A stretch of DNA of 47,532 bases from a virus: the IMG/VR virus record IMGVR_UViG_3300046789_000012; one strand, given 5' to 3'. The number at the start of each line of letters is the position of its first letter. Positions within the stretch are counted from its first letter, which is position 1. A program made the translations under genes and the position numbers. Below the pieces are notes generated by a model, which was not told where the DNA came from, did not search any database, and saw nothing but the letters and a program-made list of their open reading frames with translations. This document shows, one piece after another, positions 5,927 through 47,532 of the stretch.

Positions 5927-6349
5927 TCACTGCACTTTGCGGCCGCCAGTGCGCAGGTAAGCCTGCACTGCATACGCCAGCTCGGCGGCAAGTGTGCGGC
6001 TGTTCCGATCGGCGAGCGCCTGCAGCTCGTCGCGCTGCTCGTCGCTGACGAGCGACTCGACGCCGCCGAGGAAAGCCTCGACCGACCTGCCGATCGTCGC
6101 GCTCAACTCCTGTCGCTGTTCGAAGCCGTAGCGCCGCAGCCGCTCGCCGAGCTCGCGCGGCAGGTAAGCCGTAAACCTGTCGAGCTCGTCGCCGCGCGTG
6201 CGATGCACGAGGCCGCGCGCCGAGCCTTTCGAACCGCGGTGTGCGGGCGCAGGCTTCGCCGCCGCCGTGCCCGGTATCAGCGTCTGAACCGACCGACCAC
6301 CCTCGCCACGCCCGCGCAGGGTTGCCTTGACCGCCTTAGTCGCACTCAT
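5927..6349 (-). CDS. Ribbon-helix-helix protein, probable centromere-binding partner of ParA (ParG-like)
   Basis: 140 aa; ATGA overlap with the parA stop. DRFTAYLPRELGERLRRYGFEQRQELSATIGRSVEAFL has a strand-helix-helix pattern. The longer ORF-track start (6451) would overlap parA by about 100 nt. Confidence 0.6.
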   Translation of the reverse strand: MSATKAVKATLRGRGEGGRSVQTLIPGTAAAKPAPAHRGSKGSARGLVHRTRGDELDRFTAYLPRELGERLRRYGFEQRQELSATIGRSVEAFLGGVESLVSDEQRDELQALADRNSRTLAAELAYAVQAYLRTGGRKVQ

Positions 6350-7080
6350 GCCCGTTTCCTCCTCTGTGGTTTCTCGACTGCAATGCCGCCGCTCGAGGCG
6401 CCCTCGAGCTCGCTCGCCAGCTGCCGCACCTCGGCGGCTGCCAACCCCCACGCGCAGAACGTCGTCACGCCGAGGCCTGCGGCTGTCGCGCGGCCGAAGT
6501 CTTCACGGTTGCCGAGGCGCGCCTCGAGCAGCGGCAGCTGCGCGCCGCCGAGCGCCTCGTCGGCGTCGCGCGACGCCACAGACAGGCCTTTGACCTTGTT
6601 ACGCAAGACCGAGGCGACTAGGCGGCGCCTCGACGCGCGCTCGCGCTGCACGAGCTCGAGCATCGGCACGATCCCCCATAGGTCGGCAGCGTGCGGGCCC
6701 GTCGGCACGACGACTTGGTCGGCGATCGACACGGCCGCTAGCTGCACGTCTTCGTTGCTCGGCGGCGTGTCGAGCAGGCAGAGGTCGAAACCCTCGGCGA
6801 GCGTCGGCACGACTCGACGGATCAAGTCGGCTTTCTGCTCGTCGCTGGTGCGACGCTGGTCGGCGCTGTCGAGATGCACCACGTGCAGCCGCTCGTCGTC
6901 GGCGACATTCTCGCGCCTAACGTCGTACCAGATCCGCAGCGTGCCCTGCGGATCGGCATCGACGGCGAGCACGGACAGCCCTCGCCGATGCCACTCGACG
7001 GCGAGCGAGATCGCCGTTGTCGACTTGCCGACGCCGCCCTTAGAGCCGACGACGGCGAGCACCCATGCCTTATTCCGCAT
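6346..7080 (-). CDS. parA: ParA/Soj-family partition ATPase (small, no N-terminal HTH)
   Basis: 244 aa; deviant Walker A GSKGGVGKSTTA near the N-terminus, plus DADPQG and LLDTPP motifs. Confidence 0.9.
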   Translation of the reverse strand: MRNKAWVLAVVGSKGGVGKSTTAISLAVEWHRRGLSVLAVDADPQGTLRIWYDVRRENVADDERLHVVHLDSADQRRTSDEQKADLIRRVVPTLAEGFDLCLLDTPPSNEDVQLAAVSIADQVVVPTGPHAADLWGIVPMLELVQRERASRRRLVASVLRNKVKGLSVASRDADEALGGAQLPLLEARLGNREDFGRATAAGLGVTTFCAWGLAAAEVRQLASELEGASSGGIAVEKPQRRKRA

Positions 7081-7135
7081 ACATCCTCGGATTCTCCGTG
7101 ACCGCCTGACACGCGTCAGAGCGCTAGAGCCTACG

Positions 7136-7145
7136 CGCTATAGCG
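7136..7145. promoter_or_regulatory. Perfect palindrome CGCTATAGCG (site 1 of 4), upstream of parA
   Basis: The same 10-mer recurs at 12292, 12597 and 29080, always in non-coding DNA. It contains a TATAGC -10-like hexamer on both strands. Confidence 0.5.
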
Positions 7146-8698: not shown

Positions 8699-8741
8699 CG
8701 CTCGCTCGCGCGCGAGAGGGCTAGTGAGTGAGCGGTTTTTT
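8699..8741 (+). terminator. Candidate intrinsic terminator (9-bp stem with one G-U pair, then T6)
   Basis: cgctcgctc (8699..8707) pairs with gagtgagcg (8726..8734), followed by gTTTTTT (8736..8741). The T run overlaps the stop codon of the convergent minus-strand gene. Confidence 0.4.
8712..8735 (-). repeat. 24-nt repeat CCGCTCACTC(A/G)CTAGCCCTCTCGC, inverted copy
   Basis: The reverse complement of 8712..8735 matches 29168..29191 at 23 of 24 positions. Confidence 0.85.
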
Positions 8742-9027
8742 ACACTCGTTCCACGTCGACTAGAACGATCGACATCACGCAAAAGCCCTCGGGCACGCCG
8801 AACACATTCCCGCGCAGCACATACGTCACGAGTGCGCGCGCCTCGTCGCCGGTGTACGCCTGCGAGTCGGGCGACCACTCTCGCAGGCGTAGTCCGTCGC
8901 CGACCTGAAAGCCCCGATCGTCCCGCCGATACTCGAACCGCTTGAGCTCGCGCCGAATGTGCTCGAACGGTTCTGGCCAGCATCGCAGCTCGTGCAGCGT
9001 GCACGGCTTCGCTTTGTTCGCTGTCAC
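8740..9027 (-). CDS. ASCH-like / DUF3850-like small protein
   Basis: 95 aa; GTGA overlap with the recombinase stop. LHELRCWPEPFEHIRRELKRFEYRRDDRGFQVGDGLRLREW fits the remembered DUF3850 pattern. Confidence 0.65.
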   Translation of the reverse strand: MTANKAKPCTLHELRCWPEPFEHIRRELKRFEYRRDDRGFQVGDGLRLREWSPDSQAYTGDEARALVTYVLRGNVFGVPEGFCVMSIVLVDVERV

Positions 9028-9980
9028 AGGCCGATCCCTTTGCTCGCGTTGTGCTCGTCGAGCAGCCGAGCGTCGCGCACGTACCTGTCGACCATCTCGC
9101 GGCCGCGCCATCGCCCTTGCTGCATGATCGCCCTGTCTGTCTTGCCAGCTGCAGCCGCCGACGTCGCGAGGCCGGAGCGCAGCGAGTGTCCCGAGTAGCG
9201 AGCGGCGTCGAGGCCGACGCGCTCGACGCTGCGCTTCACGACCTCGGCGATCGCTGCGCCTCGCAGGCCTGCGTCGAGCACTCGACCGCCGCGCGACATG
9301 CGCCGCAGCAGACGGCCGCGCTTGAGCTTCGAGAGCACAAGCCACGCCTCGAGCGCCCGCACCGGGCACGTCTGCCGGTTGCGCCCTCGAGCGACGCCGA
9401 CGCGATGGCCTTTGCCTTGCTGGTCGGTCTTACTGCGACGGATCAGCACGACGAGGCCGCCCTTTGTACCCTCGACGTCGCGCACCTCGAGCGCTGCGAG
9501 CTCCGACCGGCGCAGCGCGCCGCTCATGCCGAGCGTCAAGATCACGCGATCACGCACGCCGATCGGCGAGTCGGGCAGGGCAGCGCAGACGCTTCGTAGC
9601 TCGGCGGCAGTGAGCGGCGCGACCTGCCGCTGCGGCTGACCGTGCGTGCGGCGCACGCCTTCCCACAGGCGCTTTATCCGTGGATCGCTCGTCGGCGTCG
9701 CGTGCGTGCTGTTCACGTGCACCCACGCGATCGCCGACAGCGCGACCGATAGCGTACTGATGCTGACCTGGTGCGCGCGCTCCGTCAGCCACAGCGCGAG
9801 CGTCTCGGCAGGGCAGGGCAGCGGCTCGAGCTCGCGCGCCTCGCACCACGCTTTGAAGAGTCGCCACTGCCGAGCGTACTCGGCGAGCGTCCGCTTCGAA
9901 CGCGAGGCCGCTTCGTACTGCCTCGCGCGCTGCGCGAACAGCGCGAGCTGTGCAGGATGGGCCCGTGTGATCGCGGTCAT
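9024..9980 (-). CDS. Cre-like tyrosine recombinase
   Basis: 318 aa; RVILTLGMSGALRRSELAAL (Arg I region), YSGHSLRSGLATSAA (H-x-x-R), IMQQGRWRGREMVDRYV (W ... Y nucleophile). Co-linear with remembered P1 Cre blocks. No lambda-Int-type arm-binding N-domain. Confidence 0.9.
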   Translation of the reverse strand: MTAITRAHPAQLALFAQRARQYEAASRSKRTLAEYARQWRLFKAWCEARELEPLPCPAETLALWLTERAHQVSISTLSVALSAIAWVHVNSTHATPTSDPRIKRLWEGVRRTHGQPQRQVAPLTAAELRSVCAALPDSPIGVRDRVILTLGMSGALRRSELAALEVRDVEGTKGGLVVLIRRSKTDQQGKGHRVGVARGRNRQTCPVRALEAWLVLSKLKRGRLLRRMSRGGRVLDAGLRGAAIAEVVKRSVERVGLDAARYSGHSLRSGLATSAAAAGKTDRAIMQQGRWRGREMVDRYVRDARLLDEHNASKGIGL

Positions 9981-11911: not shown

Positions 11912-12268
11912 CTATAGCTTCGACGCGCTAGCGGCCGCCTGCCGCCGCTCTCGGCGCTCGCGATGCCAGCCGAGCCAAGCTGGGTCCAGCTGCCACACGC
12001 AGACAACGCGAACGCCATCGCCATCACGTCGACCGCGACTGCGAAAGTCTGGGAAGCGTTGAATCGCCCAACTTTCCGCCGCCCATTGGCCGGGAAAACA
12101 GGCCTCGTGTCGACCTTCGACCTCGACTCCGTCGGCGAACGCACGCAGGCCAAACATGTCCCGCACGACGCGCGCCCTCGAATACAGCACGAGCATCAGC
12201 CGCTCTGCTTCGACGGCTCGCCACTGGCGCACGAGCACCTCGACACTGTCGATTACGGGATACGACAT
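11912..12268 (-). CDS. Hypothetical protein (118 aa)
   Basis: Start taken at ATG 12268 (MSYPVIDSVE). The ORF-track start at 12403 would read through the palindromes and the TTGACA element. Confidence 0.5.
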   Translation of the reverse strand: MSYPVIDSVEVLVRQWRAVEAERLMLVLYSRARVVRDMFGLRAFADGVEVEGRHEACFPGQWAAESWAIQRFPDFRSRGRRDGDGVRVVCVWQLDPAWLGWHRERRERRQAAASASKL

Positions 12269-12291
12269 TCCCGAACGCCTACCACTGCCGG

Positions 12292-12311
12292 CGCTATAGC
12301 GTCTAGACGCT
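12292..12311. promoter_or_regulatory. Overlapping palindromes CGCTATAGCG (site 2 of 4) and AGCGTCTAGACGCT
   Basis: Read directly, 24 nt upstream of the minus-strand ATG at 12268. The 19-mer gcgctatagcgtc(t/c)agacg also occurs at 7135. Confidence 0.5.
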
Positions 12312-12332
12312 AGCTCTGCGCGTTGCTTTTTT

Positions 12333-12338
12333 CTTGAC
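12333..12338 (+). promoter_or_regulatory. TTGACA -35-like hexamer after a T6 run, pointing into the origin region
   Basis: gcttttttcTTGACAgg; no convincing -10 at 16-18 nt. A second candidate, TTGCGC-16-GAGAAT, lies at 12369..12396. Confidence 0.25.
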
Positions 12339-12430
12339 AGGTGTCCGGCCGACGGCTGTACGCTCGCGCTTGCGCGGTATCCAGAAACCGAGAGAATACG
12401 CATCTAGCTCTTAGACGCCGCATCAGAGCG

Positions 12431-12503
12431 AGATCCCGGAAATTCTCGATCCTTTCTGCAGATCCGCAGCTCAACAGAGCTGCGGAGCTCTGCAGAGCAA
12501 GAT
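12431..12503. repeat. GATC cluster (4 sites in 73 bp) in the locally AT-richest stretch, with an internal hairpin
   Basis: GATC at 12431, 12447, 12460 and 12500. ccgcagct-caacag-agctgcgg hairpin at 12463..12484. GATCTTAAG is also present at the second origin. Confidence 0.7.
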
Positions 12504-12527
12504 CTTAAGTGTTAAGCGCCGATACCC

Positions 12528-12584
12528 CCTGTCTGGAAGGGTCTTTGCCCTGTCTGGAAGGGTCCTCGGGTCTGTCTGGAAGGG
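12528..12584 (+). repeat. Three iterons CTGTCTGGAAGGGT (12528, 12549, 12571) at 21-22-bp phasing
   Basis: Three exact 14-nt copies read directly. The spacing is about two helical turns, as in plasmid iteron origins. Confidence 0.85.
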
Positions 12585-12596
12585 TGTCACCACACG

Positions 12597-12606
12597 GCGC
12601 TATAGC
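12597..12606. promoter_or_regulatory. Palindrome CGCTATAGCG (site 3 of 4), between the iterons and the DnaA box
   Basis: Exact 10-mer. Confidence 0.5.
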
Positions 12607-12615
12607 GTGGGTAAG

Positions 12616-12624
12616 CTGTGGATA
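12616..12624 (-). promoter_or_regulatory. Consensus DnaA box (TGTGGATAA, complement of TTATCCACA)
   Basis: Exact 9-mer. The 13-mer gctgtggataacc is repeated at 29133..29145. Confidence 0.7.
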
Positions 12625-12694
12625 ACCAACCAACAGGTAGGGAGTGCAGGCGCAGGCGTTTCGGCCGTCCGAGATCCGTCGGCGATCGCGTCGA

Positions 12695-13510
12695 TCAGCT
12701 CGACGACGAGACGACGTCGCCGGAAAAGCTGACGGGCAGCGCGCCGCTGCTCTGCAGCTCGGCGACTGCCGACTTCACGCGCCGCCGCACTTGGTCGCGC
12801 GGCTGTCCAGGCGCAACGCGCAGCCGAATCGCTTCGAGCGTCACAGAGGGCGCGGCTGCGAGGCACAGCTGCAGCCACTGCGCGAGCGGCCGATTGCCGA
12901 TCGTGTGCCGCTTCGACTCGGCGACGCTGACCGTCCCGAGCGCCATCATGTCGAGCATGACGTCGTTTACCCACAGCGTGACAGTCGAGTCGACCGCCGA
13001 GGCTCCGAGCAACACGCCGCCCAACGTCGTACGGCGACGCCCCTCGCGAAACCACACAGTAGTTGCAGTGAGGTCTAGCAAGAGCGACCAAAGCCCGTCC
13101 AAGTGCAGCGCGCCGCCCTTGCGACGCAAGCGCCGGTTGACCTCGTCAAGGCTAACCGTCACTCGCGCATCGGGCCCGCTGTCGCTCAGATAGCCGAGTG
13201 CGACCATCAACACGTCTGCATGCGCCTGCGTCAACACGCGCCCGTGCAGCTGATAAACGCGCTCTGCTCCATCCACGTCGACCGACCGCTCGCGCGCACG
13301 AGCTGTGCCGACGTGCGACGCAGTGAACACGTTTGCGCGAATCAGCTCGAGCGGCATCTGCAGGGTACCCGATCGGCAGCGTGGCACGCGATCGAGCGGC
13401 GCGCGAGTGAGTGCGAGTGCGCTTTCCGTAAGAGACTTGAGCTTATCGCCGGGATCTGCTTTATTCGTCATCGAATCACTGCGCTGTCTGGCAAAGGCAA
13501 GCCGATTCAT
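12695..13510 (-). CDS. Plasmid-type replication initiator (TrfA/RepA-like)
   Basis: 271 aa. The blocks LELIRANVFTAS, HGRVLTQAHADVLMVALGYL and LHLDGLWSLLLDLTATTVWF are co-linear with remembered TrfA-type initiator blocks. The gene abuts the iterons and DnaA box. Confidence 0.65.
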   Translation of the reverse strand: MNRLAFARQRSDSMTNKADPGDKLKSLTESALALTRAPLDRVPRCRSGTLQMPLELIRANVFTASHVGTARARERSVDVDGAERVYQLHGRVLTQAHADVLMVALGYLSDSGPDARVTVSLDEVNRRLRRKGGALHLDGLWSLLLDLTATTVWFREGRRRTTLGGVLLGASAVDSTVTLWVNDVMLDMMALGTVSVAESKRHTIGNRPLAQWLQLCLAAAPSVTLEAIRLRVAPGQPRDQVRRRVKSAVAELQSSGALPVSFSGDVVSSSS

Positions 13511-13618
13511 GACGCCTCGCTGCTCTAACAGTGGGGCGTCTCGCTATGGCGATCAGGCCATAACGTTGCAACTAGAGCGCGCCGAGCACCTCGGGCGCAA
13601 CAAAAATGCAAGCCGACC

Positions 13619-14326
13619 TCACACTTTACGCGCGGCAACTCGACGGCCCTGCGCGTTTCGGCGAGGTCGGCGAGGTGCGCTCGGCGCGACGCTGCGATCG
13701 GCTTCGCTCACTGCGCGCAGGTAACCGGCGACGTCAAAGCGCGTGAAGCTGACGGCCCACACCCACGGGTTACGCTCCCATTGCTCGGGCGCTTCGTGCG
13801 CTGCGTTCCATGCCTTCGCGAACGCCGCTCGGCGAGCAGGGCACTCGGCGATGCACGAGCTGTATTCCGTGTCGTGCGCAGGGCAGCTGACGCCCTCCGC
13901 GGCGTAGTCGCGCGCGCAAGCATCCTGCAGCCGCTGGCAGCGTACGTCGTAGACACGCAGCCACAGGCGCGAGGCCTTCCGCGGCAGCAGCAGCGGCGAC
14001 AGCCACTGCCGGCCGATCACGACCTCGGCTGCCGCGTCCGCTTCGTAAACGATGCGACGCTGCGCTCGAGCGCCCTCGACCTGCCATCGCTCGCGCACCC
14101 ATAGCCAGTCGTCGACGGCGCCGAACGGGCAGCCGAGCAGCACAGGCCGCGCGCCCTCGCGCCCGCACACTGCGCGCAAGTCGCCGAGTCCGTCGCGCAC
14201 CCAACCCTCGACGACGGCGTCGACAGGCGCTCGCACGACGCGCCGCAGTTGCCATTGCTCGAGCTGTGCGACTCGCCGGGCCTGCGCCCTCGACAACACG
14301 ACCGACCTGCACGCGCGCGACGACAC
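13619..14326 (-). CDS. ASCH-like prophage protein
   Basis: 235 aa. WVRERW ... YEAD ... LPRKASRLWLRVYDVRCQRLQD ... AEG resembles a widespread prophage family with a W-x-P-x-x-M-P-R-W-A-S-R ... RLQDI pattern. Memory-based. Confidence 0.6.
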   Translation of the reverse strand: MSSRACRSVVLSRAQARRVAQLEQWQLRRVVRAPVDAVVEGWVRDGLGDLRAVCGREGARPVLLGCPFGAVDDWLWVRERWQVEGARAQRRIVYEADAAAEVVIGRQWLSPLLLPRKASRLWLRVYDVRCQRLQDACARDYAAEGVSCPAHDTEYSSCIAECPARRAAFAKAWNAAHEAPEQWERNPWVWAVSFTRFDVAGYLRAVSEADRSVAPSAPRRPRRNAQGRRVAARKV

Positions 14327-14567
14327 GCGCCGACACTACCCTCGAGCTGTCCAGCACACTAGCTCGCTCGAGCGCTAGCGCGCGAGATAGCTAGCACACG
14401 CTCGAGCCTAGGCGCTAGTGTGCGCAACTCTGCGACTTTGCTTACACTTAGCCGCAACTAGTAGACCCCCACAATTCTGTAAGTCTTAGCTGAAACGCGT
14501 TCTCACTGATGCGAAGTCTATGCGAGTGTGAATCACTCGCACTCGCAGGAGTGCGGATAGGGGTGGC

Positions 14568-15122
14568 ATGCAAGGTCGCGACGACTCAAACGACCCGCTA
14601 ACTATCGAGACTGCAGAGGCTCTCGATCTGCTGCGTGAAACCGCAGCTGACCTCTGCAGGCCAACAGGCGACGAGCCGTCGCTGCGCCTGCTCGCTCTAG
14701 CGCAAGCGATCGGCGTGCCCGGCGCCCTCTGGTCGCACGAGGTCGCCGACTGGCCAGCCGAGCGCCTCGCCGGCGCCATCGCCGTCTATCTCCAAGAAGT
14801 TTACGAATGGCCTTACTCGCGCGCCGCCCTCGAGCGCGCGGCGATGCAGGCTAGCGGCTATCCCGAGCCGACACGTCGACCCGCGCTCAGGCTGGTTTGC
14901 GGCGGCGGCGAGTCGCAGCGCGCCCGGCGTCGCGAAGCTTATCGGCTGTCAATCGGCCTCCGTGAGCTTCGACATGCGTACGCGCATCAATCAGGCGCTG
15001 CGCTGTCGTTTGACGAGCACCGCTGCCGGCATGTGGTGCTTTCGTGGTGGAGCTCAGTCGAGATGGCGCACGACTATCAGGCGCGGTTAGCGACGTATTG
15101 GGCCTTTCTTCGCAGTTCGTGA
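14568..15122 (+). CDS. Hypothetical protein (184 aa)
   Basis: SD-like aggggtgg upstream. Third-position G+C about 70 percent in its last 240 nt, higher than the opposing frame there. Confidence 0.5.
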   Translation: MQGRDDSNDPLTIETAEALDLLRETAADLCRPTGDEPSLRLLALAQAIGVPGALWSHEVADWPAERLAGAIAVYLQEVYEWPYSRAALERAAMQASGYPEPTRRPALRLVCGGGESQRARRREAYRLSIGLRELRHAYAHQSGAALSFDEHRCRHVVLSWWSSVEMAHDYQARLATYWAFLRSS

Positions 15123-15552: not shown

Positions 15553-15660
15553 GCCTCGGGACCTCGGTAGCGTGTCCAGGCTATAGCGCCAACCCTATAC
15601 CGTCCGGCACGGTTTTTCTATGACGCAATTTCTCTCATACCTCGGCGCCTAAGTGTCGCA

Positions 15661-16081: not shown

Positions 16082-17071
16082 ATGGGTACGCCGACACCTC
16101 GCCGCAGTCAACGACGCTCGATCAAGCTGCCGGACCTCTATTGGTCCGCCGACTCGCCGCTCGACGGCGTCGCTCGCGTTGTCTGGACTCAGTGCTTGTT
16201 TCTGGCACGCCCGCAGCGTGACAGTCACGCGGACAGTCACGCGCCGCCGCAGCGTGACCGTCACGCCTTAGAGCGCGACAGTCACGCGCTCGAGCGCTGG
16301 CCAGCAGCGCCGCTCGTCGACGAGAGCCTGCGCTCGCTCACGCTCGCCGACATCGCGCGCGCAGTGCAGCTCGACAGGCACCTCGTCACGCGTGCGATGC
16401 AGCAGCTCGAGCGCCTCGGCGAGGTCGCGCGAAAGCCCGACGGAACGTGGGTAGTCCTGCGCTACGGCCTGACGCAGGAGAGGCCAGACGCCGAGCGCAA
16501 GCGACGCCAGCGGGCCCGTAAAAAGCGTGACAGTCACGCGGACAGTCACGCCGATTTACCCCGTGACAGTCACGCCGCCGAGCGGGACAGTCACGCGAGT
16601 TTTCCCGCGCGCGCGCTCTTAAGATCTGAGAGATCAGAAGATCTAACAGATCTTAATACCACTACCTCACCTCTTAACTCTGACCGCGTGCACGCGCGCG
16701 AGCCTGCAGTCGAGGCGCAGCGCTGGCTAAACGAGATTCTGACAACCGCGGCTGCGACGTTCGCGCCGCCGGCGCTCGGCACCAAATGGGAGCGGCATTA
16801 TCGCTGGATAGGGCAGCGCCCGCAGCGCGAGCTCGAGCAGGTCGGCGCGCTGCTGTGCGACGCGCTGCGCAGCCGCGCCCTGCGGGCCCGGTACCTCACG
16901 CCGCAGCACCTTATGTCCTACTGGCCGCAATACGCCGCCGGCGTGCTGCCGAACGCGCCTCGCCTCGCCGCGGTCGCAGCAGTCACGCCTGCCGAGCTCG
17001 AGCAGACGGCGCTCGAGCTCGAGGCCGAGGCCGACAACAACCCGGCCTGGCTTCAAGAGGCCGCGCCATGA
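16082..17071 (+). CDS. Replication initiator (lambda O-like role) with winged-helix domain and intragenic origin
   Basis: 329 aa; AGGAGG just upstream. LTLADIARAVQLDRHLVTRAMQQLERLGEVARKPDGTWVV is wHTH-like. The gene contains 8 iterons and an AT-rich GATC island and is followed by a helicase-loader gene. Confidence 0.7.
   Translation: MGTPTPRRSQRRSIKLPDLYWSADSPLDGVARVVWTQCLFLARPQRDSHADSHAPPQRDRHALERDSHALERWPAAPLVDESLRSLTLADIARAVQLDRHLVTRAMQQLERLGEVARKPDGTWVVLRYGLTQERPDAERKRRQRARKKRDSHADSHADLPRDSHAAERDSHASFPARALLRSERSEDLTDLNTTTSPLNSDRVHAREPAVEAQRWLNEILTTAAATFAPPALGTKWERHYRWIGQRPQRELEQVGALLCDALRSRALRARYLTPQHLMSYWPQYAAGVLPNAPRLAAVAAVTPAELEQTALELEAEADNNPAWLQEAAP
16220..16287 (+). repeat. Iteron cluster A: 4 x GACAGTCACGC (16220, 16232, 16256 with one mismatch, 16277)
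   Basis: Read directly. The core cgtgacAgtcacg is dyad-symmetric. Translated in frame as RDSHA-type peptides. Confidence 0.85.
16529..16596 (+). repeat. Iteron cluster B: 4 x GACAGTCACGC (16529, 16541, 16564, 16586)
   Basis: Same internal spacing pattern (12 / 23 / 22 nt) as cluster A; starts exactly 309 nt (103 codons) after it. Confidence 0.85.
16617..16660. repeat. AT-rich island with 4 GATC sites in 30 bp (candidate DNA-unwinding element)
   Basis: cttaAGATCTgagAGATCAgaAGATCTaacAGATCTtaatacc, with GATC at 16623, 16632, 16640 and 16649. Strikingly AT-rich for this genome. Confidence 0.75.
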
Positions 17072-17721
17072 CACACGGTATGGCGCGCATTCAGGACCTG
17101 CTAAAGCGCCTGCAGCAGCAGGTCACAAGCACCGAACACGCAGCCGTGCTCGAGCACGACGCCGACCGCGCACGGCAGCAGGCTCGGCGCGACGCCCTGC
17201 TCGCGCTGCCGACGCCGCTCGACGACGAGATGCTGCGCGCCATCGAGCACGACACGCTCGAGCAGACTGTCGCGCTCGTCGCTGTGCGGCGCTTTCTCGC
17301 GCTGCGTAGCTCGCGCACGATCCTCGTGCTGCACGGCGCTACAGGCACGGGCAAGAGCGTTGCCGCGGCCGACGCTGCAGCGCGCCGAGCGCATGCGCGC
17401 TGGGCCTATCCGCGCGACCTCGTCGAGGCCTATCACAGCCGGTATTCCGAGGCGCTCGTGCGGCGGCACGCGCTCGAGCAGTGCCCGCTGCTCGTGATCG
17501 ACAGCCTCGGCATCGAGCAGGCCGACACGACGATCATGCTCGACGCCCTGGTCGGACTGCTGCCCGTTCGCGTGCGACGCCGAACCATCATCACCACACC
17601 GCTATCGCAAGCCGCGTTCCTGCGTCGCTACGCGTTCGCGCCGCTGCTGAGTCTGCTCGCGGCCTCGGCGTTCCACGTCTCGCTAAAGGCGCTGCCAACC
17701 AAAGGACCGGACCAGCCGTGA
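17068..17721 (+). CDS. DnaC/IstB-like AAA+ helicase loader
   Basis: 217 aa; ATGA overlap with the initiator gene. Walker A LHGATGTGKS and Walker B LLVIDSLG. Confidence 0.8.
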   Translation: MTHGMARIQDLLKRLQQQVTSTEHAAVLEHDADRARQQARRDALLALPTPLDDEMLRAIEHDTLEQTVALVAVRRFLALRSSRTILVLHGATGTGKSVAAADAAARRAHARWAYPRDLVEAYHSRYSEALVRRHALEQCPLLVIDSLGIEQADTTIMLDALVGLLPVRVRRRTIITTPLSQAAFLRRYAFAPLLSLLAASAFHVSLKALPTKGPDQP

Positions 17722-29054: not shown

Positions 29055-29080
29055 GAGACACAACCTCCTATGCACTCGAC

Positions 29081-29110
29081 GCTATAGCGCCGAGCACAGC
29101 GTCGCGTCAA
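29081..29110 (-). promoter_or_regulatory. Sigma-70-like promoter for the moron: TTGACG (29110..29105), 18-nt spacer, TATAGC (29086..29081)
   Basis: Minus strand reads gttcgTTGACGcgacgctgtgctcggcgcTATAGCgtcgagtgcatAGGAGGttgtgtctcATG. The -10 lies inside palindrome CGCTATAGCG (29080..29089, site 4 of 4). Confidence 0.6.
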
Positions 29111-29134
29111 CGAACGTGTGCCGCTTGTAGGCGC

Positions 29135-29156
29135 TGTGGATAACCGTTGTGGATCG
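29135..29156 (-). promoter_or_regulatory. Consensus DnaA box TGTGGATAA (29135..29143) plus degenerate TGTGGATCG (29148..29156)
   Basis: The exact 9-mer and identical 13-nt context gctgtggataacc match 12614..12626. Located in the non-coding gap of the structural module. Confidence 0.55.
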
Positions 29157-29167
29157 AGCCGCTAAAC

Positions 29168-29191
29168 CCGCTCACTCGCTAGCCCTCTCGC
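29168..29191 (+). repeat. 24-nt repeat CCGCTCACTCGCTAGCCCTCTCGC, direct copy
   Basis: Matches the reverse complement of 8712..8735 at 23/24. The overlapping 21-mer CTAGCCCTCTCGCTCACTCGC (29179..29199) matches 5844..5864 at 20/21. Confidence 0.85.
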
Positions 29192-29340
29192 TCACTCGCG
29201 CACGAGCGAGCTAGACCACTGAACGCCAGCCGCCGCCCAATCGCGCCCGCGCTTGAGCCGCAGGCCGAATACCGAGGGAAACCCGGCCTGAAACGGGCCT
29301 GACTTCCGGTTTTTTGACCTCGAATGAGGCGCCAACCTTT

Positions 29341-29385
29341 AGAGCACTCGCGCCCTAGCTCGCTCGGCGGCGAGTGCTCTTGACA
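29341..29385 (+). promoter_or_regulatory. 11-bp perfect inverted repeat AGAGCACTCGC / GCGAGTGCTCT abutting a TTGACA hexamer, upstream of the head-gene operon
   Basis: Arms at 29341..29351 and 29370..29380; TTGACA at 29380..29385. The next + gene starts at 29396-29414. Confidence 0.45.
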
Positions 29386-29395
29386 GCTGTACAGC

Positions 29396-30649
29396 GTGAC
29401 TGTAGTGGCCGCCGTGCAGGTCACGAGATACGACGCTGCTCGGCTCGGCAACACTCGGCGCACGCCGCAGGGGTTTCTGCGAGCGCCTGCGCGCGTCACG
29501 AGGACCGGTGTGCTCGTCTACAAGCGCGCCGACGGCAGCGTCGTGCGCGAGCTCAGGCGACCCGAGGAAGTGTTCCGCGCCGAGTCGATTGCGACGCTCG
29601 CCGACGCGCCAGTGACCGACCTGCACCCTCGCGAGATGGTGTCGCCGGCGAACGTGCAGACGCTCTCCGTCGGGCACGTGTCGGGCACGAGCGCGCGCGC
29701 AGACGCCGGCCGCTTCGTCGAGGCCGACCTCGTGATCACTGACGCCCGCATGATCAAGGCCATCGAGGCCGGCAGCCGGCGCGAGGTCAGCTGCGGCTAC
29801 AGCTGCAAACTCGTCAACAAGCCGGGCACCTACAACGGCGAAAAGTACGACGCCGAGCAAGTCGACATCACATACAACCATGTCGGCTTAGGGCCTCAAA
29901 AATGGGGCCGCGCTGGTTCCGAGGTCGCGCTGCGCCTCGACGGAAGCGCCGACGATCACTCGCTGCACGACGACGCTGCACACGCAGTGCTGCGCGACGA
30001 CGACCGCGACGACGACGACAACAAAGGACGCCCTATGGAACTGGTAATGATCCGGCTCGACGGACTCGAGGCGCAGGTCACGCCGCCGGCCGCTCAGATC
30101 GTGCAGCGCACGCTCGAGCAGCGCGACAGCAAGATCGCCGAACAGGCGGCCGCCCTCGCGCAGCTGCAAACACGCTTCGACGCCGTGCGCGGCGAGGCCG
30201 ACGCAGCGAAGGCAAAGCTCGCCGAGGCGAGCGACCCGGAACGCTTCGAGGCCGCCGTGCGCGACCGACTCGCGCTGCTCGAGCGAGTGCGTCCCGTGCT
30301 CGGCGCCGAGTCAAAGCTCGACGGCCTGTCGCCGCGCGAGATCAAACTAAAGGCGCTCGCCAAGCTCAAGCCTGGTCAGGCGTTCGATAAAGAGTCAGAC
30401 GCCTACGTCGACGCGCGCCTCGACGGCGCCCTCGAGCTCGTCGCCGACAAGCGCTCGAGCAACAGCGGCGGCGGCAACAGCGCCGACGACCTGCGCCGCA
30501 GCCTGCACGGCAACCGCTCGCAGCAGACGGCCGCCCTCGACGTGCGCGCAATCCTCGCCGGTAACCAGCGCACCGACGCCGCCGACGCCAAGCCGCCGAC
30601 GTTCGAGCCGCCTGCGTGGCGCACAAAGCTCGCCGCTTCGCGCGAGTAG
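29396..30649 (+). CDS. Prohead scaffold/protease-like protein (DUF2213-like)
   Basis: 417 aa; QGFLRAPARVTRTGVLVY, REVSCGYSC and ITYNHVGLGP match the remembered DUF2213 pattern. Acidic stretch, then a coiled-coil C-half. The start could instead be GTG 29405 or 29414. Confidence 0.75.
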   Translation: MTVVAAVQVTRYDAARLGNTRRTPQGFLRAPARVTRTGVLVYKRADGSVVRELRRPEEVFRAESIATLADAPVTDLHPREMVSPANVQTLSVGHVSGTSARADAGRFVEADLVITDARMIKAIEAGSRREVSCGYSCKLVNKPGTYNGEKYDAEQVDITYNHVGLGPQKWGRAGSEVALRLDGSADDHSLHDDAAHAVLRDDDRDDDDNKGRPMELVMIRLDGLEAQVTPPAAQIVQRTLEQRDSKIAEQAAALAQLQTRFDAVRGEADAAKAKLAEASDPERFEAAVRDRLALLERVRPVLGAESKLDGLSPREIKLKALAKLKPGQAFDKESDAYVDARLDGALELVADKRSSNSGGGNSADDLRRSLHGNRSQQTAALDVRAILAGNQRTDAADAKPPTFEPPAWRTKLAASRE

Positions 30650-33560: not shown

Positions 33561-34180
33561 TGGACTGGCAGGCCTTCGCTGATGGCATGAAGACGTGGAT
33601 CGCGCGCACGACCGCGATACAGCTAGACGACGTCTACTGGGAGGGCGAGCCACTCGGGATGCTCGGCTATCCGCAGGCGCGCCTAAACCTGCTGGGCAGC
33701 CCTGGCTACGGCATCAGCGACGTTGCGCTCAACAGTGACGAGGTGCGCCTCGTGCCGCAGGGGCCCGGTCAGGACGCGCTAGTACGCATCGTCGGCAACC
33801 GCGCTGTGACGCTGCAGGCCATCGTCAACACGCGCGACGGAACACCGTGGGGGCGTGCTTTTCGCTACCTCGAGCGCATTCGAAACGCGCTCTACCTGCC
33901 GAGCACACAGACGCTTTTCTCCGACCTCGGCATCGGCCTCGACGGGCCCGGCGTATTCATCGACCTCAATTACATGTGGGACTTTCGCAAGGAGTCGTCG
34001 GCGAGCCTCGAGCTACGTCTGCTCTACGCCTACGACACCATGTGTGAGTGCGGCGCTGACGACATGCCCGCGGAAACCATCGGCACGATCGAGCATGTGC
34101 GCGTCAGCGGCACTGTCGGCGCGCCTTTCAACTTCGACAGTCAACTGATCACAGTGCCCGAGCGGCAGATCGACAAATAA
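33560..34180 (+). CDS. Neck / tail completion protein (hypothetical)
   Basis: 206 aa; 1-nt overlap with the upstream stop. Position just before the sheath gene. Confidence 0.55.
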   Translation: MDWQAFADGMKTWIARTTAIQLDDVYWEGEPLGMLGYPQARLNLLGSPGYGISDVALNSDEVRLVPQGPGQDALVRIVGNRAVTLQAIVNTRDGTPWGRAFRYLERIRNALYLPSTQTLFSDLGIGLDGPGVFIDLNYMWDFRKESSASLELRLLYAYDTMCECGADDMPAETIGTIEHVRVSGTVGAPFNFDSQLITVPERQIDK

Positions 34181-34192
34181 AGGCCTTACCCC

Positions 34193-35512
34193 ATGGCAGG
34201 ATCAGAGATCGAGGTTATCGAGCACACAGTCACAGTCGCCGACGCGACCGTGACGAAATTTGGTTTCGGCGTGCCGCTCATCGCCGTCAATCACAACTAT
34301 TGGCCGGAGCGCGTCAAGACGTTCGCCAACGCCGCCGACCTGACCAAGGCGCCCTACAACGTGCCGCAGACGTCGGCGCTCTACATCGCCGCCCGGCAGC
34401 TCAAGAGTCAGCAGCCCTCGCCGCCGACGTTCAAAGTCGGGCGCATGACGGCGGCATTCACGCAGTCGTTCAAGCTCACGCCTGCGACGCCATCGGCTGC
34501 CGGCGAACACTACACAGTCACGATCGACGCGACGAAAGTCGACGTCGTGCTGTCGCCGCCGTCGAGCTCGGCTGACGTCGTGACCGCGCTCGTCACCGCC
34601 ATCAATGCGATCGTCGACGTCACTGCGACAGGCACGACCGACGTCAACGTCGTAAGCGACACCGCGAACGCAGTGCACTCGATCAGCGGCCTGTCGGCAA
34701 ACATCACCTTTGCAGACACCACGCCCGCAGCGACGCCAGCAGCTGCGGTCGGGACCGACCTGGCTGCGATCAGGGCCTTTGACGGCGACTGGTATGCCCT
34801 CGTGATGCTCGTGCCCGGCGCTGCGTCAGTGCAAGAGGCCGCTGCGTGGGTAGAGCCCGAGCGCGCGCTCTACTTCTCGGCAACGGCCGCGAACGATGTG
34901 CCATCGTCGCTGACGACCGACATCGCGACCACGCTGCAGGGCCTCGGCTACACGCGCTCTAGCATCTGGTGGCATCCGAATCAGAGCGAGTACCTCGACG
35001 CGTCTGTCGTCGGCGCGATGCTGCCCAAGCTGCCGGGCCCGATTACGTTCGCAAACAAGGGCCTCGCCGCTGTGACAATGGCGAACCCTGACACCTCGCA
35101 GCGGGCAGCGCTCAAGACCAAGCACGCAAATTGTTACATCAACATCAAGGGCCTCGGCTTCACGCTGTGGGGGTGGGCAGCGAGCGGCAGATACCTCGAC
35201 GTCACTGTCGCGATCGACTGGTTCGACGTGCAGATCGAAGACCGAATCGTCGCGCTGCTGCGCAACAACGATGTGGTGCCCTACACAACTGCGGGCATCG
35301 AGCTCGTGCGGTCCGAGATATTCGCGCAGATCCTCGAGGGCATCGCACTCGGGATAATCGACGGCGCGCAGCCGTTCAGCGCGACCGCGCCCGCGCTCGC
35401 AACGATCGACCCGAACCTCAAGACGCAGCGCATCCTGCCCGATATGAAATACAGCTATGTGCTGTCCGGCGCGATCCACAAGGTTCGCGTAGTCGGCACT
35501 GTCCAGGTCTAA
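34193..35512 (+). CDS. Tail sheath protein (DUF3383-like)
   Basis: 439 aa. ITFANKGLAAV ... KHANCYINIKGLGFTLWGWAASGRYLDVTVAIDWFDVQIEDRIV fits the remembered sheath family. Followed by tube, chaperone and tape-measure genes. Confidence 0.8.
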   Translation: MAGSEIEVIEHTVTVADATVTKFGFGVPLIAVNHNYWPERVKTFANAADLTKAPYNVPQTSALYIAARQLKSQQPSPPTFKVGRMTAAFTQSFKLTPATPSAAGEHYTVTIDATKVDVVLSPPSSSADVVTALVTAINAIVDVTATGTTDVNVVSDTANAVHSISGLSANITFADTTPAATPAAAVGTDLAAIRAFDGDWYALVMLVPGAASVQEAAAWVEPERALYFSATAANDVPSSLTTDIATTLQGLGYTRSSIWWHPNQSEYLDASVVGAMLPKLPGPITFANKGLAAVTMANPDTSQRAALKTKHANCYINIKGLGFTLWGWAASGRYLDVTVAIDWFDVQIEDRIVALLRNNDVVPYTTAGIELVRSEIFAQILEGIALGIIDGAQPFSATAPALATIDPNLKTQRILPDMKYSYVLSGAIHKVRVVGTVQV

Positions 35513-46500: not shown

Positions 46501-47532
46501 ACCATCGACGGAATCGCGACAGCGCCCGCCGACCGCGTGTTATTGACCTCGCAGACAAGCGCGGCCGCAAACGGAATCTATCTAACCGCCGCCGGCTCAT
46601 GGGCCCGCGCAGCCGACGCTGACAGCTCTGCTGACGTCACCGCGGGCATGTACACGTTTGTCGTCGCCGGCGCAGCCAACGCAGACAGCGGCTGGGCACT
46701 CATCACGCCCGACCCGATCGTGCTCGGCACAACGCCGCTCACTTTCACGCAGGTCACCGGCGCAGGGCAGATCACCGCCGGCGCTGGCCTAACCAAGACC
46801 GGCAACACACTCGACGTCGTCGCGCATGCCGACGGCTCGATCGTCGTCGCTGCTGACAGCGTTCAGCTCGGCGTGATCGCGACCGACGCGCAGCACGGCG
46901 CTCGAGCAGGCGGCACGACGCACGCAGCGGTTATCGCCGCCGGCGCTTCCGGTTTCATGACCGGCGTCGACAAAACCAAGCTCGACGGCGTCGCTACAGG
47001 CGCAGCCGCCGTCGGCAGCACGACGCCGATAGCTGCAGACGTAACCGCGGCCGCTGCCGGCTCGGCTACCACAGCCGCGCGCTCAGACCATCGGCACCAA
47101 GTCACCGCCGGATCGCCTGTTGCTCTCACGCTCGCCGCAGCGACTGCTGACGGCACGAGCACCTCACTCGCTCGAGCCGACCACGTGCACGCGCTGCCGG
47201 CGAGCTCGACCACGCCGACCGCGCTTACCGTAGGCGGCGCAGGCTCGGCAGGTAGCTCGACATCGATATCAAAAGCCGACCACGTGCACGCGATGCCAGC
47301 GACTGCGACGACCGGCGCAGACGGCTTCATGGCGTCCGGCGACAAGTCGCGGCTCGACGCGCTCGTCGCCACCTACAAGACAGCCGTCCGAGTCGCATCC
47401 ACCGGGCACATTCCGAACGTCGACATACCGGGAAATCAGCCGAACGTTGTCGACGGCATATCGCTAGCCGTCGGCGATCGCGTCCTGGTTAAAGATCAGG
47501 TCACGGTCACATACGCTAACAATATTTATTCC
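43543..47532 (+). CDS. Tail fibre protein, N-terminal 1,330 codons (open at the window end; continues at 128)
   Basis: ATGA overlap with the upstream gene. Hand translation of frame 1 from 43543 to 47532 showed no stop. Contains repeated beta modules, GF(M/Q/L)SAxDKxKLDG motifs and DHxH motifs. Not listed in the ORF track because it lacks a stop inside the window. Confidence 0.85.
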   Translation, partial: MSITLTFNQPGAGIPAGSVDRGRTDIKSTGAIGDTRAYPVTITIGNIPATATVDVLLLDEPPESNPLLTELAPETWQLDFDTGCWGPFRVRVTATINDAVVGSVTRRISIRSPGYHIDYPALAERYDPNATAVPTVPSVELTEMNEGSTNRPLVDFHRQLLEAIEGTSGGGGGVIPDGSITEDKLAPELSDNLLRADGTIPFTQDQDAAGHTVGNLGTPTLAGDAVPLWYVQTSFALSGIHMPCRLVATTPVTASNTQVIDGKSTVNGQRILLTAQASPIDNGLYVANDAGAWLRAPDADTSAELMPGLIIFATDGTAYAETGWILASDAPIAIGTSPLTFARFTGAAQVVAGAGLTKNGDTLDVVAHADGSIVVAADSVQVGVLASDAQHGARAGGTQHAAATTAVAGFQSAADKLKLDGVATGAAALASSAPASVGTANAVGAGTTAARSDHVHAHGAQADGTLHAAATTTVAGFQSAADKLKLDGVATGAAALTSSAPAAVAFTGAVGVGTTAARSDHVHAHGAQTDGTLHAAATTTVAGFQSAADKLKLDGVATSAAALSANAPTQITVTTAAVGVETAAAKGDHTHSVSIGAPSALAVGGAQNTGSATSLPRSDHQHAMPDVATTSVAGFLSASDKTRLDGMATGAAALTSTAPVAVDNAAAVLGVGTTAARHDHKHTVSIGTPVALAVGGASGQGSATTLTRSDHTHGLPSLVTTSVDGFMAAADKLKLDGVEAGAQVTSFARVQTALAAATGSVSFNAQRITSVADPSATQDVVTRGYLETLAGTFDAKPSCRLVTTTNITLSGLTAIDGITPSGSDRILVTGQTTASANGLYTAAVGAWARATDADTSAKVSAGLTVRVNEGTLGADTLWILTTNDPITLGTTGLVFAQAPSTADKTKIDGIEAGAQVVTFARVQTALGVASSAVSFNSQKITNVLDPTSNQEVATKAYVDAIAQGLDVKTSVRLVATTNVATLSGSQTIDGIATAPADRVLLTSQTSAAANGIYLTAAGSWARAADADSSADVTAGMYTFVVAGAANADSGWALITPDPIVLGTTPLTFTQVTGAGQITAGAGLTKTGNTLDVVAHADGSIVVAADSVQLGVIATDAQHGARAGGTTHAAVIAAGASGFMTGVDKTKLDGVATGAAAVGSTTPIAADVTAAAAGSATTAARSDHRHQVTAGSPVALTLAAATADGTSTSLARADHVHALPASSTTPTALTVGGAGSAGSSTSISKADHVHAMPATATTGADGFMASGDKSRLDALVATYKTAVRVASTGHIPNVDIPGNQPNVVDGISLAVGDRVLVKDQVTVTYANNIYS
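44740..45342 (+). repeat. Three in-frame tandem 201-bp repeats (67-aa units) inside the fibre gene
   Basis: Unit starts at 44740, 44941 and 45142. Long stretches are identical (gtcgccgggttccaatcggcggccgacaagctcaagctcgacggcgtcgc at 44761, 44962 and 45163). The third unit diverges in its second half. Confidence 0.9.
47406..47532. repeat. Terminal overlap copy B, identical to 1..127
   Basis: Same 127-nt string as the window start. Confidence 0.95.

Follow-up and report, generated by a model that had tools for sequence, protein, structure and literature searches.

We analyzed a 47,532-nucleotide stretch of viral DNA (IMG/VR virus record IMGVR_UViG_3300046789_000012; referred to throughout, at its full length, as the window) and found a segment at positions 12290-12690 that is quite likely to be an oriV-like theta origin, served by the adjoining minus-strand gene at 12695-13471, its dedicated and strongly diverged initiator of the TrfA superfamily. 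An earlier note, made from the letters alone, had proposed a canonical theta-plasmid origin here, naming P1 oriR, RK2 oriV and pSC101 as parallels; our results support the theta-type origin, with a layout like that of RK2 oriV and not that of P1 or pSC101. Both the mechanism and the type of element are known ones, and what the window holds is very probably a strongly diverged TrfA-type iteron replicon in a phage-plasmid.

The predicted initiator protein

The earlier note had assigned the initiator to a minus-strand open reading frame (ORF) of 271 amino acids at 12695-13510. This frame exists, with an in-frame ATG at 13510 that would give the 271-residue product, but the conserved gene is shorter: because the relatives start at Met14, and because the upstream ATG reads CTG in the related locus L003, we place it at 12695-13471 on the minus strand. 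Its predicted product of 258 amino acids is a divergent Rep protein of the TrfA superfamily, in which an N-terminal DNA-binding region containing the motif MPxxxxRxxxF is followed by two winged-helix domains, WH1 and WH2.

The resemblance of its conserved blocks to TrfA and RepA initiators, which the earlier note had also claimed, proved invisible to direct family searches and was borne out by profiles and by a structural model. A profile built from five sequences was run against 1.84 billion representatives (E<=1e-3) and retrieved 122 proteins, with bona fide TrfA at E 1e-12 to 1e-15. Among the 125 aligned sequences (these 122 matches and the query's own family), 86 matched Pfam TrfA, 54 RPA, 24 RepC and 15 Rep3_N. 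Two proteins that match the family profile, P0012 (E 9.8e-15) and P0015 (E 2.7e-12), pass the gathering score of PF07042 with 53 and 66 bits over the whole model. The initiator protein does not reach that score, and hmmscan of its 271- and 258-residue versions gave no TrfA match even at E<=10; since it thus fails the Pfam model itself, we class it as TrfA-like but not as a TrfA by the Pfam definition. The profile search that had been suggested as a check nevertheless reaches TrfA by way of the relatives, and an hhalign comparison of the five-member family with three bona fide TrfA proteins gave a probability of 99.3% (E 3.7e-20, 224 columns). In this alignment the invariant MPLELIRANVFTA falls onto the TrfA-type motif vPNELsRSALFAA. 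Residues M39-P40...F49 are invariant or almost so in the family, the N-terminal TrfA motif being matched by alignment only. In RK2 TrfA, the peptide at the equivalent position, AMPNDTARSALFTTR, crosslinks to iteron DNA, and the substitution P151S, at the essential proline of the MPN..RSALF-type motif, abolishes binding (PMC8034659).

The structure was predicted with AlphaFold2 on the 125-sequence alignment, which replaced a poor run on five sequences (predicted local distance difference test, pLDDT, 55). The resulting model (pLDDT 90; predicted template modelling score, pTM, 0.87) has the N-terminal region followed by tandem winged helices, WH1 at about residues 82-168 and WH2 at about 185-256. 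When it was compared with the PDB by Foldseek, the top 20 matches were exclusively iteron-binding initiators. The best were domains 2-3 of RctB (5tbf, E 5e-5) and RepE54 on iteron DNA (7soz, TMq 0.54, TMt 0.61), both spanning about 250 columns at 10-16% sequence identity; the WH1 domain of MSBI1.176 and, lower in the list, pPS10 RepA were matched as well. The named match in BFVD was a 'COG5527 ...' plasmid replication initiation protein of an uncultured Caudovirales phage. A resemblance to winged-helix initiators, on which the earlier note had staked its proposal, is therefore present in a confidently predicted tandem winged-helix fold, and judged from profiles and model together the protein is a far-diverged member of the TrfA superfamily.

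Iterons, DnaA boxes and the conserved layout of the probable origin

Downstream of the initiator gene, CTGTCTGGAAGGGT occurs in exactly three copies, at 12529, 12550 and 12572, with start-to-start distances of 21 and 22 bp, as the earlier note had described; no further copy with fewer than three mismatches was found across the 47.5 kb. The repeat unit extends to 17 nucleotides (12527-12543, 12548-12564 and 12570-12586), so that the exact 14-mers and their extension together define three iterons at 12527-12586 (minus strand, gene-strand core ACCCTTCCAGACAG), the presumed binding sites of the initiator. The array thus has the phased direct repeats of an iteron-type theta origin (at least three, of 17-22 bp, in a phase of about 22 bp). 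A perfect DnaA box, TGTGGATAA (TTATCCACA on the gene strand), was likewise confirmed beside the iterons, at 12617-12625 on the minus strand, 31 bp past the nearest 17-nucleotide iteron, and the degenerate form TTWTNCACA occurs three times in the window against 0.32 expected. A second, degenerate box, TTACCCACG (7/9 positions; 12606-12614, minus strand), is tentative; it lies 11 bp from the first and overlaps a palindrome, and close relatives carry TTATCCCCG or TTATCAACG at the same offset. All of the features that the earlier note had listed exist, but it had placed each of them one base too low.

A metagenome scan with an 11-sequence alignment added 33 loci with protein identities of 24-98% (numbered with L here). 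Arrays were detected by a script that chains k-mers at 15-40 bp spacing, and loci with at least 250 bp of downstream flank were counted. It was found that 28 of these 30 loci carry 3-9 repeats with a period of 21-23 bp, the first of them 90-300 bp beyond the matched segment's end; L012, on a viral contig, has four repeats just upstream of the gene instead. Elsewhere, comparable arrays numbered only 4 in about 130 kb, and two of those were collagen-like coding repeats. At least 12 unrelated iteron types adjoin more distant homologues of the initiator. The repeat sequence varies by lineage and is homogeneous within a locus (concerted evolution), so that the copies of a locus change together: CCCTTCCAGACAG in the window, CCCTTCCAGACAT in L001, CCGTTCCAGACAT in L006 and CCGTTCCAACCAT in L009. 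Such a pattern is that to be expected of a DNA-binding protein co-evolving with its sites, and we infer that the initiator binds its iterons in a sequence-specific manner.

The DnaA box follows the array. In the aligned close relatives, the box and the three iterons keep fixed positions past the end of the gene, and a perfect box lies beside the array in most loci. In L001, L003, L006, L013-L018, L019, L020 and L022 the perfect box keeps the same place in either orientation, being flipped in L019, L020 and L022; the perfect 9-mer is absent from L009, L023 and several distant loci. Because the position is kept despite the inversion, the presence of the box appears to be under selection, beyond mere common descent. 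The origin module of gene, iterons and DnaA box is thus kept across relatives with concerted change of the iterons, and a clade at about 30% protein identity (L017, L019, L020, L022 and L023) retains the entire layout. In gene orientation this conserved order runs from the stop codon through a hairpin, the DnaA box, three iterons and ATGTATCGGCGCTT to the low-GC stretch with (A)TCTGCAGA, GGATCTCGCTCTG and TAAGAGCTAGA, and then through the GC-rich ACCGCGCACGCGCGAGCGTACA to GTGTCAAGCAAA and CTAG-centred palindromes. In these same five loci the initiator stop codon is separated from the DnaA box by a strong intrinsic terminator with a conserved loop, CGACGGATCG; the loop sequence also occurs after the stop codon in the window (12671-12680, minus strand), there without a strong stem.

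The low-GC stretch next to the iterons (12380-12526) is a candidate DNA-unwinding element. It contains two copies of TCTGCAGA, four GATC sites and the conserved blocks GGATCTCGCTCTG and TAAGAGCTAGA. The two copies of TCTGCAGA, at 12455 and 12489, are the only ones in the window, and L019, L022 and L023 have 2-4 (A)TCTGCAGA copies with the same blocks in the same place. Its description as the locally AT-richest DNA was nearly right: the 200-mer at 12378-12577 has a GC content of 54%, against a window mean of 66%, and ranks as the second lowest, the lowest being at 14416. On the far side of the stretch lies the GC-rich block TGTACGCTCGCGCTTGCGCGGT (12357-12378), the most conserved non-coding sequence of the locus. 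It is almost invariant in nine aligned origins whose proteins range down to about 30% identity, and its core, GCGCGAGCGTAC, occurs once per locus in 16 loci.

Two other elements that the earlier note had seen in the low-GC stretch exist, but fared less well in the comparison with relatives. The four GATC sites are present, at 12432, 12448, 12461 and 12501. GATC is over-represented in the window as a whole: its 320 sites, or one per 148 bp, compare with 229 +/- 14 in shuffles that preserve dinucleotides, and at least four sites within 73 bp occur in only three places. Two of these three tight clusters coincide with the two origin-like regions of the window, and the third is at 34147-34207. The close relatives L001, L003, L006 and L017 retain a single GATC, and at the best-conserved site about half of the aligned origins have GAATC instead. 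The cluster is therefore not conserved, a P1-like control by Dam and SeqA lacks comparative support, and we rejected Dam/GATC control as a conserved feature of the origin. The hairpin at 12464-12485 has a stem of 9 bp (CCGCAGCTC/GAGCTGCGG), not 8 bp; it is absent from the aligned relatives and is strain-specific.

The palindrome reported between the iterons and the DnaA box is also real, but it is a motif dispersed through the genome and not specific to the origin. This operator-like sequence of 11 bp, GCGCTATAGCG (12597-12607, with CGCTATAGCG at 12598-12607), has four exact copies in the genome, all intergenic (7135-7145, 12291-12301, 12597-12607 and 29080-29090): one is upstream of parA, one is on each flank of the origin and one is in the gap at 29.1 kb. 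Near copies are found at 14693-14703 and 15579-15589, in the CI/Cro gap, and relatives have GCTMTAGC at the equivalent places. The motif resembles an operator recognized by a global regulator. Its second copy, on the outer edge of the origin, overlaps the palindrome AGCGTCTAGACGCT (12291-12311), and relatives have two copies of CCGGCGCTCTAGCTCGCGCGC in this place; the next minus-strand gene probably has its operator/promoter region here. The only other perfect DnaA box of the window, at 29135-29143, is situated 55 bp from a copy of GCGCTATAGCG in the large intergenic gap 29076-29395, with a TTGACA at 29382 before the gene that starts at 29396.

At 11912-12403, next to the origin, ORFs overlap on both strands, the plus-strand one being 11963-12313. 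A comparison with the 98%-identical strain L016 favoured the minus frame 11912-12403 (99.4% amino acid identity, against 95.7% for the plus ORF), and we therefore rejected a convergent-gene terminator zone at the origin; the genes around the origin are thus all co-directional. Because the DNA at 12340-12400 is conserved as non-coding sequence, this gene likely starts at the internal Met at 12268.

The T6-TTGACA element that the earlier note had seen pointing into the region is present, with T6 at 12327-12332 and TTGACA at 12334-12339. We describe it as a promoter-like element, TTGACA - 19 nt - TACGCT (12359-12364), which occupies 12334-12364 on the plus strand, points to the iterons and is antisense to the initiator operon. 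Both hexamers are kept in nine origins, the spacer sequence being free, and L015 has TAAAAT at the -10 place; conservation of the hexamers with a drifting spacer reads as the signature of a promoter. A strict sigma-70 scan called no site in the region, and found one weak terminator-like site; the element was missed because its spacer is 19 nucleotides. Its function could be to activate the origin by transcription, to supply a primer or to exert antisense control. A structured small RNA (sRNA) or countertranscribed RNA (ctRNA) at the origin was rejected, since Rfam gave no family but a chance match only, and when RNAalifold was applied to the nine origins the covariation term was unfavourable and no fold was supported; a small ORF at this place is made less likely by indels whose lengths are not multiples of three.

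A further reading of the same element, which we hold to be possible but unlikely, is that the clade represents a previously unrecognised TrfA-like phage-plasmid replicon whose firing depends on the built-in promoter at 12334-12364. A transcript running through the unwinding element would then open it, in the manner of lambda, or prime the leading strand, and the GC-rich block at 12357-12378 would be the -10 and start region of the promoter. If true, such a promoter-dependent origin would be a hybrid of Rep/DnaA-type and transcription-activated origins.

The carrier phage and its two probable replication modules

The iteron replicon lies in a tailed-phage genome. The window begins and ends with the same 127 bases (1-127 and 47406-47532), which form a direct terminal repeat without mismatch, and we therefore treat it as a circular or complete genome of 47,405 bp; the repeat is either an assembly overlap or a true terminal redundancy. 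The window encodes a large terminase, whose best known relative is that of Aeromonas phage vB_AsaM-56 (39.5% identical), a small terminase of the Sf6 type, a CI-like repressor, a Cro-like gene, an O-like initiator, a DnaC-like loader and a tyrosine recombinase of the Phage_integrase family (9024-9980). A ParA-type partition ATPase is encoded on the minus strand at 6346-7080 (Pfam AAA_31, 1.7e-20; also CbiA, MipZ and ParA) and is syntenic with the ParA of relatives. Downstream of it, at 5927-6349 on the same strand, is a small ParB-like or ribbon-helix-helix partner gene with a weak RHH_5 match, which tblastn paired with the gene next after parA in L003.

The sole close relatives of the 271-residue ORF product are four proteins on metagenomic contigs of 32-46 kb, which share synteny with the window, including terminase, portal, ParA and ParE toxin. 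In L003 and L006 a ParE toxin-antitoxin lies between the initiator gene and parA. In the window, the recombinase gene is immediately followed on its downstream side by a DUF3850 (ASCH-like) gene at 8740-9027, the two overlapping by 4 bp. The fetched regions of L003 and L006 are without the recombinase and have instead, besides the toxin-antitoxin, MUG113 (L003) or Uma2 (L006); the space between the initiator gene and parA is therefore a region of variable cargo.

By the definition of a phage-plasmid in PMC11652158, structural and packaging genes (the portal being taken from the relatives), a plasmid-type initiator and a partition system are combined here on one replicon. With its phage structural genes, ParA and ParB-like genes, recombinase and separate lambda-like O/DnaC module, the element therefore looks like a P1-style phage-plasmid. 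A blastn search of the region against GenBank phages gave no match. We regard the source as an uncultured high-GC soil lineage of 38-47 kb phage genomes, whose elements are probable phage-plasmids.

The separate module constitutes a second origin-like region. In this region (16082-17721), about eight copies of GACAGTCACGC form two clusters inside the O-like gene (16215-16299 and 16524-16608). The repeats are followed by TTAAGATCTGAGAGATC/GATCTAACAGATCTTAA, an AT-rich palindrome at 16619-16656 with four GATC sites, to which no other 60-mer of the window is equal in low GC content, and the DnaC-like loader gene comes next. The layout is the ori-in-O arrangement of lambda, and the module is probably the lytic replicon. 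By analogy with P1, the TrfA-like replicon would most likely maintain a low-copy plasmid prophage, and the O/P-like module would serve lytic replication.

The roles could also be assigned otherwise: the TrfA-like gene and its iterons might be the lytic, or the sole, origin of a temperate phage that integrates, with the recombinase as its integrase. We consider this distinctly improbable. The presence of a Phage_integrase-family gene would suit it, and Rep-like initiators do occur in ordinary phage genomes, as the BFVD match illustrates. On the other hand, ParA and the ParB-like gene lie on the same strand about 5 kb away, the fetched 20-kb regions of the relatives carry the ParE toxin-antitoxin and no integrase, and the complete early module of Cro-like, O-like and DnaC-like genes is already a lytic replicon. 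No transfer RNA (tRNA) gene or attP-type feature was seen in the window, and a scan of 185,579 genomes gave no integrated prophage relative, which together with the circular contig is consistent with extrachromosomal upkeep.

That second module also bears on whether the iterons mark the origin itself. They could form a copy-control or incompatibility array, like incA of P1 and incC of F, which titrates or handcuffs the initiator, the real origin lying elsewhere, for example within the O-like gene (16215-16656). The array is indeed downstream of the initiator gene, as incA and incC are, and a second origin-like structure does exist in the window. Against this, a DnaA box and a conserved low-GC stretch always accompany the array, which is the signature of an origin and not of a titration site alone, and the genome has no second array of the same repeat, the repeats of the O-like gene (GACAGTCACGC) being different; we regard a pure copy-control array as very improbable. 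Least credible of all is that the protein is a winged-helix transcription regulator for which the repeats serve as operator, with an incidental DnaA box and an incidentally low GC content: most winged-helix proteins are regulators, and the region does have operator-like palindromes and a promoter-like element, but the protein has full-length homology to TrfA, RPA and RepC initiators and not to regulators, its structural matches are initiators only, and an operator is not built of direct repeats at a 22-bp period and a DnaA box of conserved position.

Several observations weigh against a TrfA-like maintenance origin. Searches of the initiator protein against Pfam, PHROG and NCBIfam gave no match, its sequence and profile searches against the PDB gave noise only, and tblastn against PLSDB plasmids and GenBank phages gave no match, so that it has no characterised close relative. 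The low-GC stretch still has 54% GC, and melting there is inferred. The division into a maintenance and a lytic module draws on the P1 analogy and the neighbourhood only, and the tyrosine recombinase could mean that the element integrates. There are only three iterons here, and RK2 needs five; pSC101 and IncQ use about three. Finally, no conserved iteron-like inverted repeat was found at the initiator promoter among the relatives. The window does have an iteron-like 14-mer at 13485-13498 (gene strand CCTTTGCCAGACAG, compared with the iteron CCCTTCCAGACAG), just upstream of the conserved initiator start; as an autoregulatory operator it is doubtful, not being present in relatives, and we set that candidate aside.

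Upstream of the initiator gene, and co-oriented with it, is a gene of 235 amino acids (13619-14326, minus strand) that matches phrog_874 (E 2.5e-32), a PHROG of unknown function. In every close relative a homologue of this gene immediately precedes the initiator gene; it is probably the first gene of the initiator operon. Between the two genes, at 13520-13600 (minus strand; 9900-9965 in L003), are two conserved inverted repeats, TATGGC..GCCATA (ATGGCC..GGCCAT in relatives) and GACGCC..GGCGTC (an 8-bp stem in relatives), which could be an attenuator or an operator. The segment upstream of the operon, 14327-14480, has six CTAG sites within 100 bp, and palindromes such as GCGCTAGCGC; CTAG is under-represented overall (87 sites against about 146 expected). 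This segment contains the lowest-GC 100- and 200-mers of the window and is probably the promoter/operator of the initiator operon.

Comparison with known replicons and the proposed mechanism

In the RK2 minimal oriV, a GC-rich segment follows the AT-rich region. The window has the same order of DnaA box(es), iterons, candidate unwinding element and GC-rich block, and the same iteron period of about 22 bp; the first three elements stand in this order in the RK2 minimal oriV as drawn in PMC4980987 (Fig. 1B). The two systems, TrfA-oriV of RK2/RP4 (IncP-1) and that of the window, also have in common the protein superfamily and an N-terminal DNA-binding motif followed by WH1 and WH2 (PMC8034659). 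They differ in that the initiator of the window is beyond detection by Pfam TrfA and has 258 amino acids, compared with 382 in TrfA-44, and in that three iterons and one or two DnaA boxes are found here, as opposed to five plus three iterons and four boxes in RK2. Moreover, the window origin lies immediately downstream of the initiator gene, whereas that of RK2 is kilobases away; its candidate unwinding element, with 54% GC, is AT-rich only in relative terms; the origin is faced by a conserved promoter-like element; and the carrier is a tailed phage and not a conjugative plasmid.

P1 (repA-oriR, parAB, cre/lox and the lytic oriL/repL) offers the closer parallel in the organization of the whole element, as it too combines an iteron/DnaA plasmid replicon, a partition operon and a tyrosine recombinase in a tailed phage, with a further module for lytic replication and an operator motif scattered through the genome. 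Unlike in P1, the initiator here is TrfA-like, a Rep_3 signal appearing only as Rep3_N in 15 of the 125 distant relatives; the iterons are downstream of the initiator gene and not upstream; the GATC repeats are not conserved and give no evidence of Dam control; and the region has no detectable sequence relation to P1 or to any GenBank phage.

In IncQ origins, about 3.5 iterons with a period of 22 bp precede GC-rich and AT-rich segments; these origins are DnaA-independent and need their own RepA helicase, RepB primase and ssi sites. Likeness to the RepC-oriV system of IncQ (RSF1010) is seen in the 24 of 125 relatives of the window protein that also match Pfam RepC, and TrfA-like proteins are closest to RepC (PMC8034659). 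In contrast to IncQ, no genes for a RepA helicase or RepB primase were seen near the window origin, and its DnaA box is conserved. With RepE of F, RepA of pPS10, pi of R6K and RctB of Vibrio the window protein shares the tandem winged-helix fold, but it has an extra N-terminal region of the TrfA type and no match to them at the sequence level.

The mechanism that we propose is modeled on RK2 (after PMC4980987 and PMC8034659). Initiator monomers would bind the three iterons, which are two helical turns apart, through the N-terminal region, WH1 and WH2, and host DnaA would bind the adjoining box or boxes. Initiator and DnaA together would bend the DNA and open the low-GC stretch at 12380-12526 with its TCTGCAGA repeats, after which the host DnaB helicase and then the replisome would be loaded.

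A literature search found no directly relevant paper on TrfA or iterons in phage-plasmids. Detection of phage-plasmids relies on known rep genes, and those of environments such as this one are therefore poorly charted (PMC11652158); a profile from the family alignments would allow such elements to be recognized. A protein family left 'hypothetical' by Pfam, PHROG and NCBIfam gains a firm functional assignment, as does a conserved 400-bp non-coding module of soil phage genomes of 38-47 kb. The mechanism would be canonical and current understanding is not overturned, the promoter facing the origin being the one possibly unusual feature. In addition, the family offers at least 12 natural pairs of initiator and iteron on one scaffold, a data set for how TrfA-type proteins read their iterons.

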